From a virus (lineage: Monodnaviria > Loebvirae > Hofneiviricota > Faserviricetes > Tubulavirales > Inoviridae), in the IMG/VR virus record IMGVR_UViG_2663762893_000001: a DNA stretch of 11,866 nucleotides; one strand, given 5' to 3'. Below, piece after piece: positions 1,668-11,261 of the stretch. The first letter of the stretch is position 1; the number at the start of each line of letters is the position of its first letter. A program made the position numbers and the translations under genes. The notes beneath the pieces are model-generated. The model saw only the letters and a program-made list of their open reading frames with translations, made no database searches and was not told the origin of the DNA.

Positions 1668-1700
1668 GGTGCGCATAATGTGCGACTCGTTATGTTGAAA
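1668..1700 (+). other. attL: hybrid dif-like XerC/XerD site at the left prophage junction
   Basis: GGTGCGCATAA TGTGCGACTCG TTATGTTGAAA. The 11-bp left arm is identical to the XerC arm of E. coli dif; the central region is 11 nt (6 in dif); the right arm matches the dif XerD arm TTATGTTAAAT at 9/11. Confidence 0.75.
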
Positions 1701-1733
1701 AGGCCGCTGCGAAAATGGCCTCCGCAGCGGCCT
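1701..1733. repeat. GC-rich stem-loop (perfect 11-bp inverted repeat, 11-nt loop); possible terminator and tip of a folded attP hairpin
   Basis: AGGCCGCTGCG (1701-1711) pairs perfectly with CGCAGCGGCCT (1723-1733). It lies between the two inverted dif-like sites and 34 nt beyond the stop of the minus-strand 1767..2870 gene. Confidence 0.6.
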
Positions 1734-1760
1734 CTTTAGCATAACGTCATTGTGCGAACC
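1734..1760 (-). other. Second, inverted dif-like site (candidate attP partner site)
   Basis: Minus-strand reading GGTTCGCACAA TGACG TTATGCTAAAG: 9/11 match to the dif XerC arm, 5-nt central region, 9/11 match to the dif XerD arm. Inverted relative to attL, 34 nt away. Confidence 0.55.
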
Positions 1761-1766
1761 AATTAA

Positions 1767-2870
1767 TTATTTCTTGTCTAATATAGTACTGCTTATATTA
1801 GAATTCTTAGCTGTAAAAAGCATATCTGCTTCTTGGTATATTTCACCTGAACCACCACTAAAGTTAAACTCGATGTTTAGGTCATTATAAGTAATGCTTG
1901 GAGAGTATTTTCTGTTTATTATAATATAGCCAACTGAATTTGCAGGAACTTCAACCCTTTCTTTCGGTTTTTCCATAAGATATCCATTATCATTAACAAA
2001 TTCCACATTGTATTTCTTATACACCCTTATTTCTTCTTCTTCTCTTTTCTTTTCATCTTTATAATCAAATGTATCAACATGTTCGGAAATATATTGAAAG
2101 TTTTTATATATTCTCCATCCGCCTGAAACTTTCAGTGCTTCTGATGTTTTATTAATTATTCTAAATTTGAACATTATTTGATTTTTTTCTATCTTGGCAT
2201 CTATTATTTCAATAGGGTATTCATTCGCTCTTAGATTGTAATTTTCAGTTATCAGTCCATTACCTATAGGATTAATCGAAAGTCCAGAATTGTACATATT
2301 GTTATAAATCATGTAGTTATATGCTTTCAATGGGCCCGCGAGAGGGTTGTCTTCTGTTTGGATACTGATGACCATATAACTGAAAAATGCAGCAAAAATA
2401 GCACCGCCTAAAATAAAAGAACCTGCACTCGGTGGCACTGAGTCTTTTGAAAGGTATGTTTTCCCGTCAGTATCTTCTGATCTTATGGAAGGCATGGTAC
2501 TTTTATCAAGAACTCTTGTTCCTTCAATCAAGAGCACCATGGATATTTTTTTATTTGCTAATATTCTATCTATCTTCACAAAAGAACCTTCGGTAGTTGC
2601 ATCATGATCACTTGCAATTACAGTACAAGACATACCGTTTGGGACTTTTATTTCTACATTTTTTTCTTTATCCTTACCTTTATTAAATACTGATGCATTT
2701 ATTACTATTGCATTGTCAGATATTGAGGTTTTACTCAAGGAGTTCCAACAGGATAAGTAAAGTTGTCTTTTCCTAAATATAGATAAAAACTTATTGAGGA
2801 CTAATGCCACAAAAAAAGAAGTAACTACTTTCAATGTATCAGTAATCAAGTCCGGCATCTTTTTTCTCAT
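1767..2870 (-). CDS. Hypothetical accessory (moron) protein, 367 aa, low GC, two predicted transmembrane segments
   Basis: Long ORF in strongly AT-rich DNA (roughly 30% GC by eye on sample lines, versus about 50% in flanking genes). Hydrophobic stretches VVTSFFVALVLNKFLSIF (N-terminal) and FILGGAIFAAFFSYMVISI (central); Lys/Asn/Glu/Tyr-rich C-terminal half; no catalytic motif recognised. Position and composition fit the unique accessory ORF I recall from CUS-1 (puvA), but I cannot verify identity. Confidence 0.7.
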   Translation of the reverse strand: MRKKMPDLITDTLKVVTSFFVALVLNKFLSIFRKRQLYLSCWNSLSKTSISDNAIVINASVFNKGKDKEKNVEIKVPNGMSCTVIASDHDATTEGSFVKIDRILANKKISMVLLIEGTRVLDKSTMPSIRSEDTDGKTYLSKDSVPPSAGSFILGGAIFAAFFSYMVISIQTEDNPLAGPLKAYNYMIYNNMYNSGLSINPIGNGLITENYNLRANEYPIEIIDAKIEKNQIMFKFRIINKTSEALKVSGGWRIYKNFQYISEHVDTFDYKDEKKREEEEIRVYKKYNVEFVNDNGYLMEKPKERVEVPANSVGYIIINRKYSPSITYNDLNIEFNFSGGSGEIYQEADMLFTAKNSNISSTILDKK

Positions 2871-2937
2871 TTTACTTAAAATCCAGTGTTTTAACTGATC
2901 AAAGATGGTCAGATAAAATGTAAAAATTTAGTATTTG

Positions 2938-2968
2938 AATATTACCCTAGTTAACCTAGGGTAATATT
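2938..2968. repeat. Perfect inverted repeat, 13-bp arms with 5-nt spacer (AATATTACCCTAG TTAAC CTAGGGTAATATT)
   Basis: Arm 2938-2950 is the exact reverse complement of arm 2956-2968. It sits 3 nt after the stop of the minus-strand 2972..3394 gene and at the point where GC content drops. Confidence 0.85.
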
Positions 2969-2971
2969 ATA

Positions 2972-9118: not shown

Positions 9119-10362
9119 TGAAAAAGATTTTACTCGCATTAACGCTACTATTTTCTTCATGTGCTTTCGCAGGGTCAGAGCTTGAATTAAATAAAGTCAA
9201 GCTACCGGAGGCTATTTCTCTTATTTACAGTGAGGTGCTTAAAGTCCCGTATATGCTAGATCCACAGCTTGTTAATGATGAACGAATGATTACATTCAGG
9301 TTAACACCTGATATTGATGAACGGGAATTTGTAACCCGTTATCTTGGCAATATGAACATTCGAATATGGACGAAAAAGGGTGTTGATTTTATCGCGCCCT
9401 ATACGCCGAAAGAGCCGGTTAAGCCACGTTATACATGGACTTATACGCCTCAGTACCGTTCTGTTGCTTACCTGTCTGATATTCTTGGCGGCTACGTTTC
9501 AGGCTCCTTCAATAACAGTGGAGCCGTGATTTCTGACGATTCGCTAAAAGGTTCATCAGGGGCAAGCAACTACATCAATCGAACCGGTGATATTCTGGTT
9601 TATTATGGTACGAAAGAGGATATCGCCATCCTGAAAACACTGGTCACTTCGCTGGATACGATGAGTGATGAAGTGGTTGTTTCTGGTTATGTTTTTGAGG
9701 TTCAGACCTCGCAGTCTGACGGCTCCGGCATTCTTTTAGCGGCTAAAATTCTGTCTGATAAATTCAATATTTCAGTTGGTGCTGCCGGACTGGATAATTT
9801 TATCAATATTCGAACCGGCTCCATTGATGCCATTTTCAATCTGCTGAAAACCGACAGTCGTTTTACTGTTGTCAGTGCGCCACGACTGCGGGTAAAAAAT
9901 AATGCCTCAGCGTCTTTTTCAGTCGGCTCTGATGTGCCAGTACTGGGCAGTGTTACGGTGAATAACAATACGACAACGCAATCCGTTGAATATCGTTCCA
10001 GCGGTGTTTTGTTTAACGTGACGCCATCAATCAAAAGTCGGACAATGGATCTCAAGATTCAGCAGCAGCTTTCCAACTTTGTGACCACTGAAACCGGCGT
10101 CAATAACTCGCCAACCCTTATCAAGCGTGATGTAACAACCGAAGTCAGCCTTGCAGATGGTGATATTATTTTACTTGGTGGCCTTGCTGAACAGAAAGAC
10201 AGTAAGGCCAGTTCCGGCTGGAGCTTCTTCGGTTCCCGTACCAGTGAAAGCAACAAGACTGATATTATGGTGATGCTTCAGGTCAGAAAGGTTGACCGGA
10301 GCAGGGCGACGCCCCGCAGCGCCGCGAGGAGCGGTGAACTGTTCCGGGACAACCTGAACTGA
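9118..10362 (+). CDS. Secretin (pIV-like outer-membrane export channel)
   Basis: 414 aa. ATG overlaps the pI stop (TAATG at 9116-9120). N-terminal signal peptide MKKILLALTLLFSSCAFAG. C-terminal secretin-type region VVSAPRLRVKNNASASFSVGSDVPVL ... LADGDIILLGGL. Confidence 0.88.
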   Translation: MKKILLALTLLFSSCAFAGSELELNKVKLPEAISLIYSEVLKVPYMLDPQLVNDERMITFRLTPDIDEREFVTRYLGNMNIRIWTKKGVDFIAPYTPKEPVKPRYTWTYTPQYRSVAYLSDILGGYVSGSFNNSGAVISDDSLKGSSGASNYINRTGDILVYYGTKEDIAILKTLVTSLDTMSDEVVVSGYVFEVQTSQSDGSGILLAAKILSDKFNISVGAAGLDNFINIRTGSIDAIFNLLKTDSRFTVVSAPRLRVKNNASASFSVGSDVPVLGSVTVNNNTTTQSVEYRSSGVLFNVTPSIKSRTMDLKIQQQLSNFVTTETGVNNSPTLIKRDVTTEVSLADGDIILLGGLAEQKDSKASSGWSFFGSRTSESNKTDIMVMLQVRKVDRSRATPRSAARSGELFRDNLN

Positions 10363-10450
10363 TTGTATGGATTTTTATTATGGCGTTAACTTTTATGGGG
10401 TATGAACAGTACGACATCTTCTAGGTATTCAGTTACTTAGAGGATTTATT

Positions 10451-10699
10451 ATGTCTGTAAAAAATAAGGCGCGTGACCGACTTCCCGGTGGACGCCTTAA
10501 GTCTTATCGTCGTGTAGGTTCACATTTTGCCAGTTGTGCCAGATGGTTTGATAAATCGCCGTCCTGGTATCGCAATATGATGATGACCAGGCCTGAGCGT
10601 CGTGAAGTCAGAAGGCTTCTCAATCAGGTAATGCGTGGTCATGATGCTGACGGCATTGCTTTTCCGGTCAGTCATCGTCCGTTTGTTTATTGGTGGTGA
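10451..10699 (+). CDS. Hypothetical arginine-rich small protein (82 aa)
   Basis: Strong GAGGA RBS 6 nt upstream of the ATG. Basic, Arg/Trp-rich composition. No homolog recognised. Confidence 0.5.
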   Translation: MSVKNKARDRLPGGRLKSYRRVGSHFASCARWFDKSPSWYRNMMMTRPERREVRRLLNQVMRGHDADGIAFPVSHRPFVYWW

Positions 10700-10844
10700 A
10701 TTTCGTACGCACGAAATTTCACGCATAAACACCAGACAAAAAATCGTTAACTGTCTGTTTTGAAAGATAACGCCGGTCAGTGACAAAACTTGTTTTGTTG
10801 CTGTCCGGGGTTGGCCAAGCCGTACAGTTTCCATTTTCAGCGTT

Positions 10845-11093
10845 ATGGCTGATTCGGCGCGGCAGCATTCATCGGGGCTTATCATGGAAAAATTCATGAC
10901 ACATCAGGAGCTGAAAGTGATGCTTCTCAAAGATCCAGCATTCCGGGCTGCTTATGAAGCTGAGAGCCAGAACCCGCAATCCGGTTACCAGATTATCCGG
11001 CATCATGGTGATGGCACTGAAGAAGTGGTGTTTGATTCTCGTGTATCAGGTACAGATTTACCAACTAACTGGATGAACAGGCCTGATTGGTGA
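10845..11093 (+). CDS. Hypothetical small protein (82 aa from first ATG; alternative ATG at 10884 gives 69 aa)
   Basis: ORF in phage-side DNA just upstream of dif. Weak RBS at either start. No homolog recognised. Confidence 0.35.
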   Translation: MADSARQHSSGLIMEKFMTHQELKVMLLKDPAFRAAYEAESQNPQSGYQIIRHHGDGTEEVVFDSRVSGTDLPTNWMNRPDW

Positions 11094-11233
11094 GGTCAGG
11101 CCGTTCACTTACTGCTGACAGACATTTGATTCTGATTCGTTTGGAGAAACGGATGATTTTGAATCACTGTCGATAGTAGCCAGTTGACGGCCAGTGTCAA
11201 CGATTCCCGCCAGATTCTGCCATCCTTACCATT

Positions 11234-11261
11234 GGTGCGCATAATGTATATTATGTTAAAT
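11234..11261 (+). other. dif: dif / attR: canonical 28-bp chromosome dimer resolution site (XerC/XerD)
   Basis: Exact match to GGTGCGCATAATGTATATTATGTTAAAT, the E. coli dif sequence. Confidence 0.93.

Follow-up and report, generated by a model that had tools for sequence, protein, structure and literature searches.

The stretch of DNA analysed here (the window; 11,866 nucleotides, IMG/VR virus record IMGVR_UViG_2663762893_000001) begins with the host genes hipB and hipA, continues with a set of inovirus genes bracketed by two dif-type sites and ends in further host sequence. Our analysis makes it highly probable that the window carries the filamentous phage CUS-1/YpfΦ in one genetically intact copy, which sits at the E. 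coli dif site as an IMEX (a mobile element that integrates by exploiting Xer) of the CTXΦ type. A preliminary description of this DNA had proposed that dif, next to hipBA, is occupied by a full set of inovirus genes, in which those for Rep, a single-stranded DNA (ssDNA)-binding protein, the major coat protein, pIII, pVI, pI and pIV follow each other and a regulator gene diverges from Rep. Searches against Pfam and PHROGs confirmed this gene order and placed all genes between the two sites. From the 140-aa membrane protein to the right end, the genes are as follows:

2972-3394, reverse strand: 140-aa multi-pass membrane protein at the position of CUS-1 'orf1a' (phrog_4174)
3491-3937, reverse strand: helix-turn-helix regulator of the Cro/C1 type, putative repressor in the rstR position (Pfam HTH_3 1.6e-9; phrog_3557)
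3938-4108, no strand assigned: putative regulatory intergenic region between the divergent regulator and Rep genes
4109-5161, forward strand: rolling-circle replication initiator Rep of the gpII family (Pfam Phage_CRI 1.2e-73, G2P_X_C 3.6e-34)
5173-5490, forward strand: gpV-like ssDNA-binding protein (Pfam Putative_G5P 1.2e-52)
5493-5744, forward strand: 83-aa membrane protein in the gVII/gIX minor-coat position (phrog_3679), assigned by position only
5779-6012, forward strand: pVIII-like major coat protein (phrog_2186 virion structural protein, 5.9e-29)
6227-7789, forward strand: pIII-like adsorption protein, puvA of CUS-1 (phrog_3942; frame open from 6077)
7802-8089, forward strand: pVI-like minor coat protein (Pfam DUF2523 1e-20; phrog_974 and phrog_306, Ace-like)
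8093-9118, forward strand: Zot-like assembly ATPase, pI (Pfam Zot 1.9e-26; phrog_197 7e-94)
9118-10362, forward strand: secretin, pIV (Pfam Secretin 1.3e-24; phrog_1012 'protein IV of M13' 8e-138)
10451-10699 and 10896-11093 (the latter open from 10845), forward strand: two small right-end open reading frames (ORFs), 100% and 98.5% identical to the attR-proximal ORFs of YpfΦ

Each of the 11 proteins encoded by the core and the right end is full length and shares 97.4-100% identity with its YpfΦ counterpart, with values of 100% for the regulator and 99.4% for the pIII-like protein. At the nucleotide level, the YpfΦ prophage of Yersinia pestis NCTC5923 matches window positions 3411-11248 with 99.67% identity over 7,839 bp, and the CUS-1-like prophage of UTI89, a member of the O18:K1:H7 clone from which CUS-1 was described, matches positions 2970-11637 with 99.3% identity over 8,668 bp. 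The kinship to CUS-1 and YpfΦ, which the preliminary description had expected, is thus correct, at 99.3-99.67% nucleotide identity. These values agree with the roughly 99% nucleotide identity that marks members of the lineage over a core of about 7.1 kb for regulation, replication and assembly. Moreover, the ORFs at 4109-10362 have matches to the families of Rep, coat, Zot and secretin proteins. We inspected 14 related chromosomal loci of E. coli, and each adjoins hipA and/or has dif-type sites; in none of them did the same ORFs lie away from dif.

The same proteins decide against membership in UPΦ, the IKe/I2-2-like group of dif-integrating Enterobacterales inoviruses. UPΦ likewise integrates at dif in E. 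coli, often in tandem and with reverse-strand accessory ORFs beside dif, and its genes II and V are more than 85% identical to those of YpfΦ (PMC7307601). Outside these two genes, however, UPΦ and YpfΦ share less than 20% identity (PMC7307601), whereas the pIII-like, pVI-like, Zot and secretin proteins of the window are 99-100% identical to YpfΦ. This identity of the structural and assembly proteins rules out UPΦ membership for all practical purposes. The prophage lineage itself has been known since 2002 for CUS-1 and since 2007 for YpfΦ, and its integration has already been proposed in reviews to be Xer-dependent and of the CTX type. The window prophage is therefore a well-annotated instance of a described lineage rather than a discovery. 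YpfΦ has been shown to form infectious filaments, virions that contain circular (+)ssDNA, and its knock-outs in replication, morphogenesis or secretion genes fail to produce particles (PMC4266046).

Of 5,426 complete E. coli genomes, 118 contain the window core (4109-10362), at a median of 2 places per genome; tandem arrays are common. A megablast search of GenBank phage records with 1668-11261 gave no match, and the phage was seen only in prophages and in one record labelled as a plasmid (see below).

To define how the prophage is joined to its host, we delineated the attachment sites and the flanking DNA:

1-267, forward strand: hipB, host flank (Pfam HTH_3; RefSeq annotation of matching loci)
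267-1589, forward strand: hipA, host flank (Pfam Couple_hipA and HipA_C; RefSeq annotation of matching loci)
1668-1700, forward strand: attL, an imperfect 33-bp dif-like site 78 bp past the hipA stop codon
1666-1762, forward strand: attP(+) forked hairpin, from the single-stranded DNA fold of 1660-1775
1734-1760, reverse strand: second, inverted dif-like site, GGTTCGCACAA-TGACG-TTATGCTAAAG, from a pattern search
11234-11261, forward strand: attR, a regenerated exact dif (exact 28-bp match)
11262-11866, reverse strand: host flank with an alpha/beta-hydrolase fragment at 11414-11866 (weak Pfam AXE1; pseudogene in the FDAARGOS_1261 annotation)

The exact 28-bp E. coli dif, GGTGCGCATAATGTATATTATGTTAAAT, lies at 11234-11261, and none of 200 shuffled sequences contained a match. 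The hybrid site attL reads GGTGCGCATAA-TGTGCGACTCG-TTATGTTGAAA. Its XerC arm (1668-1678) is exact, identical to that of dif and host-derived, its centre (1679-1689) comprises 11 nt as opposed to 6 nt in dif, and its XerD-like arm (1690-1700) has two mismatches. At attR, the phage contributes the XerC arm (11234-11244) and the host the centre and XerD arm (11245-11261). Phage DNA proper thus spans 1679-11244, that is 9,566 nt. The preliminary description had given 1668-11261 for a phage bracketed by a dif-like site and an exact 28-bp dif; both site positions proved exact, while as the extent of the phage this interval is too large, since it includes some host bases. The 33-bp sequence of attL also recurs as the copy-copy junction in tandem arrays and as the closure junction of a free circle.

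Comparison with a dif region lacking the element, for which we used K-12 as the empty-site reference, showed that host homology to the window runs through the XerC arm plus TGT and then breaks off. A scan with positions 1300-1760 as the query, at least 80% of which is covered in 4,939 genomes, gave the same picture: homology ends at 1681 in every prophage-free genome among the matches listed. We rejected E2348/69 as an empty site, as an integrase fragment and a gene with a reverse-transcriptase domain follow its dif. In this strain (locus L004, 1870-2812), dif has a variant last base (...TTAAAG) and a different element occupies the dif-adjacent position.

In the window, the crossover can be placed only to within the shared sequence GGTGCGCATAATGT. 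In Y. pestis, attL carries the Yersinia arm GGTGCACATAA and the junction between tandem copies carries the phage arm GGTGCGCATAA. This polymorphism implies that the exchange took place 3' of arm position 6 and that the XerC arm of attR derives from the phage. Together with the end of host homology, it confines the crossover to the stretch from arm position 7 to centre position 3-4, which would be consistent with XerC cleavage at the border of arm and centre. Base 1682 within the centre is polymorphic: the window, EC36, MG32 and C 237-04 have TGTGCGACTCG, and UTI89 and Y. pestis have TGTACGACTCG. With the A variant at this position, the identity with the dif centre (TGTATA) grows from 3 to 4 nt.

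We also observed that about 25 bp upstream of the phage XerC arm (11204-11233) resemble the host sequence upstream of dif (1638-1667; about 5236-5265 in locus L012). At a fixed offset, 13-14 of 21 positions match in E. coli, K-12 and Y. pestis, with CAGATTC..CC....TTA..TT in common (binomial p ~1e-4, empirical ~1e-3). This resemblance suggests that the phage may have acquired its XerC arm and the flank from the dif region of a bacterium, or else that the flank is under constraint.

How does an element of this kind integrate? Among the ORFs of the window, Pfam and PHROGs matched no integrase or recombinase family, in line with the initial assessment, which implies that the host Xer system is hijacked. 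The left end of the phage carries the second, inverted dif-like site, which is kept in UTI89, EC36, MG32, C 237-04 and Y. pestis. Together, the two sites form a forked hairpin with a folding energy of -30.3 kcal/mol (z = -6.4), and none of 200 shuffled sequences folded as stably. It consists of an XerC-arm stem (1666-1680/1748-1762), an asymmetric internal loop, an XerD-arm stem (1688-1695/1739-1746) and a G+C-rich distal stem (1698-1711/1723-1737). The copy-copy junction of YpfΦ adopts the same fold (z = -7.5), and the hairpin sequence is kept across E. coli and Y. pestis copies while the adjoining DNA differs. On this sequence evidence, the hairpin has the attP(+) architecture of CTXΦ, as already proposed for the lineage; inverted XerC/XerD sites have been reported for YpfΦ (PMC4266046).

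CUS-1Φ and YpfΦ have been classed as CTX-type (PMC4246890). Phages of this class use (+)ssDNA as the substrate, XerC performs the first strand exchange, replication completes the reaction, integration is irreversible, and phage is produced by rolling-circle replication (PMC4246890; PMC4266046). Whereas the sites, junctions, hairpin, gene content, identity to YpfΦ, circular record of a sister strain and tandem arrays are observations, we infer XerC catalysis, an ssDNA substrate, irreversibility and a dependence on tandem copies for the window prophage. The left end of the packaged (+) strand would fold into the forked hairpin, in which the two inverted dif-like half-sites would restore arms for XerC and XerD binding on either side of an unpaired centre. 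One pair of strands would then be exchanged between hairpin and dif by host XerC, at the border of XerC arm and centre, and replication would fix the insertion. Next to hipA, this would leave a non-functional hybrid site (1668-1700), and dif would be intact at the opposite end (11234-11261), which would preserve chromosome-dimer resolution. As the hairpin would be masked in the double-stranded form and the centre of the hybrid site measures 11 nt, Xer-mediated excision is not expected.

Alternatively, integration might follow the VGJΦ type, in which the double-stranded replicative form uses the single 33-bp site as attP for a strand exchange with dif by XerC; integration would then be reversible, and even a single prophage could excise. 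The site of the circular form indeed offers an exact XerC arm, 3-4 nt of the dif centre (TGT or TGTA) and an XerD-like arm with only two mismatches. Furthermore, incoming YpfΦ prefers the imperfect copy-copy junction for integration, so the site is recombination-competent as a target (PMC4266046). However, the arms lie 11 nt apart as compared to 6 nt in dif and in contrast to the 28-29-bp attP sites of the VGJ and TLC types (PMC4246890). In the VGJ type, attP is one double-stranded site of about 28-29 bp whose dif-like centre measures 6-7 bp, whereas we found 33 bp, an 11-nt centre and a second site. This second inverted site and the very stable hairpin, both conserved in E. coli and Y. pestis, would be superfluous for a double-stranded mechanism, and the literature places the lineage in the CTX class (PMC4246890). 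Owing to the arm spacing and the conserved second site, we therefore regard a VGJ-type attP as unlikely and favor CTX-type integration.

A hint at activity of the element came from a public finished assembly. The record NZ_CP128883.1, an 'untypable plasmid' of E. coli TUM14759, is a 9,565-bp circle that corresponds to window positions 1679-11244 joined end to end. Its closure junction equals the predicted one base for base, and it is 99.95% identical to the window (four substitutions and one single-base indel), including the same cargo allele. The outward PCR across the prophage ends that had been suggested earlier thus has an in-silico counterpart in this sister strain, and the record suggests that the exact variant of the window can replicate as a free circle. 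The TUM14759 chromosome carries three tandem copies after hipA (locus L009, 1295-31423); their ORFs contain many annotated frameshifts, probably reflecting poor polishing of the repeat.

Genomes of CTX-type phages arise by rolling-circle replication across tandem copies (PMC4246890). In the proposed scheme, Rep would drive replication between successive origins of a tandem array, and a true single copy would stay trapped as long as neither duplication nor superinfection takes place. The only free circle that we found belongs to a strain with three chromosomal copies, a correlation, and in the window unique host flanks enclose one copy. By analogy with CTXΦ, a lone copy may be unable to release genomes. 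For the earlier statement that the prophage may still produce virions, this means that the genes are intact, with the caveat that the CTX-type class needs tandem copies (PMC4246890) and the window shows one. UTI89 assemblies likewise have one copy, and its relative NU14 has two.

A domesticated or cryptic remnant, without phage function and kept only for its accessory genes, would also appear as a single copy between unique flanks, and single copies of CTX-type phages are non-productive (PMC4246890). Degraded relatives do exist: MG32 has a SIR2 remnant, the copies H79-H82 are partial or interrupted by IS1, and zot is frameshifted in C 237-04. In the window, by contrast, every one of the 11 ORFs of core and right end has its full length and 97-100% identity to functional YpfΦ, the att sites are intact, and the same variant with the same cargo allele exists as the 9,565-bp circle. 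A remnant is therefore improbable in our view, and we retain the reading of an intact CTX-type prophage.

Several points weigh against this reading or parts of it. The minus strand of the hairpin region folds nearly as well (-28.2 kcal/mol), so folding alone has no power to identify the strand that is used. No f1-type Rep nick site (GTTCTTTAATAGTGG, up to 3 mismatches allowed) turned up in the window, and as neither this site nor the origin could be located, the sequence offers no anchor for the tandem-origin model. The TUM14759 circle may have been produced by the assembler, since the same junction is present in reads from inside the tandem array. Moreover, E. coli K1 reportedly yielded virion-like particles in the 2002 work on CUS-1; should this strain carry one copy, a lone prophage may be productive. 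Finally, short-read assemblies collapse tandem copies, so that the copy number in the source strain is not readable from the window. Such collapse has been noted for UPΦ prophages (PMC7307601).

With the boundaries at hand, we compared the window with UTI89 and with sister prophages whose cores are at least 99% identical. The window differs from UTI89 at 1763-2969 only, a variable slot with the following content:

1763-2969, reverse strand: variable cargo slot with one ORF, G+C content 29-35%
1767-2858, reverse strand: cargo ORF encoding 363-367 aa (RefSeq call in sister loci; frame open to 2870), phrog_17621, unknown function

The hairpin end (1762) forms the left edge of the slot in each fetched locus with a detected hairpin motif. 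For six cargo types, the right edge falls on 2970, at the stop codon of the 140-aa membrane protein; YpfΦ and strain 82.0312, in which this protein is replaced, have it at about 3388-3411. The 140-aa protein is kept in most E. coli copies and is 96-97% identical in UTI89 and DEC5E. Unrelated gene sets thus occupy fixed boundaries on a near-identical backbone, as in a hypervariable region. In the sister prophages, the slot holds:

O55:H7 DEC5E, L014 2732-3838: CAP12/Pycsar-type TIR protein (PF10137, 3.6e-20)
M11, L015 2722-3793: DUF6953 and a protein with a DpnII/MboI restriction endonuclease domain (PF18742, 6.9e-59)
NC101, L020 2348-3277: AbiJ_NTD4-DUF7014 protein, also a PADLOC PDC-S32 match
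MG32 (degraded relative), L003 3289-4641: ThsA-like SIR2 protein (PDC-S25, 2e-82) behind its own hairpin
several strains: pairs of small unknown ORFs

Cargo of the sister copies therefore matches known defence families (TIR, SIR2, restriction endonuclease and AbiJ-type), whereas the window cargo protein matched none in Pfam and PADLOC. It has two transmembrane helices, each followed by a beta-sandwich-like domain, and its AlphaFold2 model (pLDDT 82.8) resembles generic beta-sandwich folds only. The N-terminal half is conserved (motifs NKGKDKEKN, IDRIL and SEDxxGK) and the C-terminal half is variable. The window allele occurs in 17 genomes of the complete-genome collection and the UTI89 allele in 10 records. 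With 35 clusters in all, the family is small, and some of its members lie in variable islands that do not belong to phages: in Pseudomonas next to HicAB and Xre-type genes, in Proteus next to Hcp, in Serratia next to a Shedu SduA_C gene and in Enterobacter on a conjugative-plasmid-like contig. By guilt of location, a role of the window cargo in defence or exclusion is plausible. We tentatively go one step further, to a possibility that we hold to be less probable than its opposite: the slot may be an anti-phage defence hotspot of Enterobacterales, and the 363-367-aa protein a new single-gene, membrane-anchored defence or superinfection-exclusion factor.

Several related loci show further rearrangements. 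In ESBLEC_MG32, a 2.7-kb remnant (L003, 3166-6033) lies between hipA and the full prophage; it comprises an attP-type hairpin (92% identical) whose XerC-arm side is replaced by unrelated sequence, followed by the SIR2 gene and a truncated ISNCY transposase. This remnant seems to be a relative that has decayed and retained nothing but its cargo. UTME-14 (L018, 1613-4329) has a truncated unit directly upstream of the full copy, with cargo, the 140-aa gene, regulator, Rep and the ssDNA-binding gene followed by a fusion ORF, a layout that recalls the RS1 satellite flanking CTXΦ. A similar partial duplication is found in Klebsiella spallanzanii (L013). In DLI.6n (L016, 4381-4833), a core of 99.0% identity is combined with a different regulator (WP_000069317.1) and different left-end ORFs, which suggests that the lineage may have a second immunity type.

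Inspection of the remaining features of the window prophage yielded the following details. The major coat protein scores 18.8 bits with Pfam Phage_Coat_B, under the cutoff of 23.5 bits, and its sequence displays a signal peptide, a hydrophobic core and a basic C-terminus. A terminator-like hairpin with a T-run (6024-6046) follows directly 3' of the coat gene; we rejected a 40-aa ORF at 6024-6146 as a gene, as it starts inside this hairpin and has no family match. The adsorption role of the pIII-like protein (puvA) follows PMC4266046, as does the positional match of the attR-proximal YpfΦ ORFs to YPO2280a and YPO2281. The repressor role of the regulator is not demonstrated in the YpfΦ literature (PMC4266046). 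An imperfect direct repeat (3917-3940 and 3980-4003, 79% identical, 63 bp apart) spans the regulator start and the divergent intergenic region, and the motif ATGCTCA/TGAGCAT recurs at about 3920, 3984 and 4034; repeat and motif are candidate operator sites. Promoter and terminator scans gave no enrichment of matches over shuffled sequences. Between the right-end ORFs, two hairpins (about 10696-10722 and 10769-10812) lie in structured DNA (10690-10900, fold z = -3.2) and are candidates for a packaging signal or replication origin; the region 11090-11250 is not significantly structured, and an Rfam search gave no match. The reverse-strand left module of regulator, 140-aa membrane protein and cargo gene is the lysogeny and accessory side of the phage.

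What is new here is modest: a precisely bounded, defence-flavoured cargo slot in an Enterobacterales inovirus, together with its uncharacterised occupant. In addition, the boundaries and the attP(+) anatomy now have exact coordinates, and a public finished assembly holds an apparent replicative form of the exact window variant. The lineage has been linked to the fitness of extraintestinal pathogenic E. coli and of pandemic Y. pestis. A slot that accommodates TIR, SIR2, restriction endonuclease and AbiJ-type genes leads to the hypothesis that hosts might keep the phage for protection from other phages, and the window cargo nominates an uncharacterised protein family for defence testing.

Among known systems, CTXΦ of Vibrio cholerae resembles the window prophage in its lack of an integrase, in inverted dif-like sites that fold into attP(+), in an intact dif regenerated on one side, in tandem arrays, a divergent regulator/Rep pair and a Zot-like pI, and in accessory genes at its ends. 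Unlike CTXΦ, which uses a host secretin and whose gene set in reviews includes none, the window prophage encodes its own; it has no toxin genes, and its Rep belongs to the Ff gpII family. Its hairpin is compact, with about 97 nt compared to about 150 nt for the CTXΦ attP(+) (PMC4246890).

CUS-1 (CUSΦ; E. coli O18:K1:H7, Gonzalez et al. 2002), for which the UTI89 locus served as proxy, has the same insertion point after hipA and the same gene order. UTI89 shares the attL/attP hairpin and the 140-aa membrane protein (96% identical) with the window. Its outermost left gene, equivalent to 1763-2969, encodes a homologue with 29% amino-acid identity and lacks detectable DNA similarity, and its attL centre starts with TGTA as opposed to TGTG in the window. 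YpfΦ agrees with the window in the regulator, Rep, ssDNA-binding, coat, pIII-like, pVI-like, Zot and secretin proteins and both right-end ORFs (97-100% identical) and in the inverted dif-like sites, and it forms tandem arrays. It differs in two unrelated small ORFs (87 and 135 aa), which replace the cargo gene and the 140-aa membrane protein, and in its host attL arm, a Yersinia dif variant.

Variable accessory regions in CUSΦ and YpfΦ have been noted earlier (PMC7307601; PMC4266046). The closest parallel to the slot are the hypervariable regions (pHVRs) of Vibrio CTX-type inoviruses, which were described as anti-phage hotspots in a study restricted to Vibrio (PMC12715192). In both cases, a sharply bounded, low-GC variable segment occupies a fixed place in otherwise near-identical inoviruses (PMC12715192), and the gene sets also occur elsewhere in bacteria, several with defence-type domains. 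The slot differs from the Vibrio pHVRs in that it belongs to the CUS-1/YpfΦ lineage of Enterobacterales and that the cargo of the window itself falls into no known defence family.

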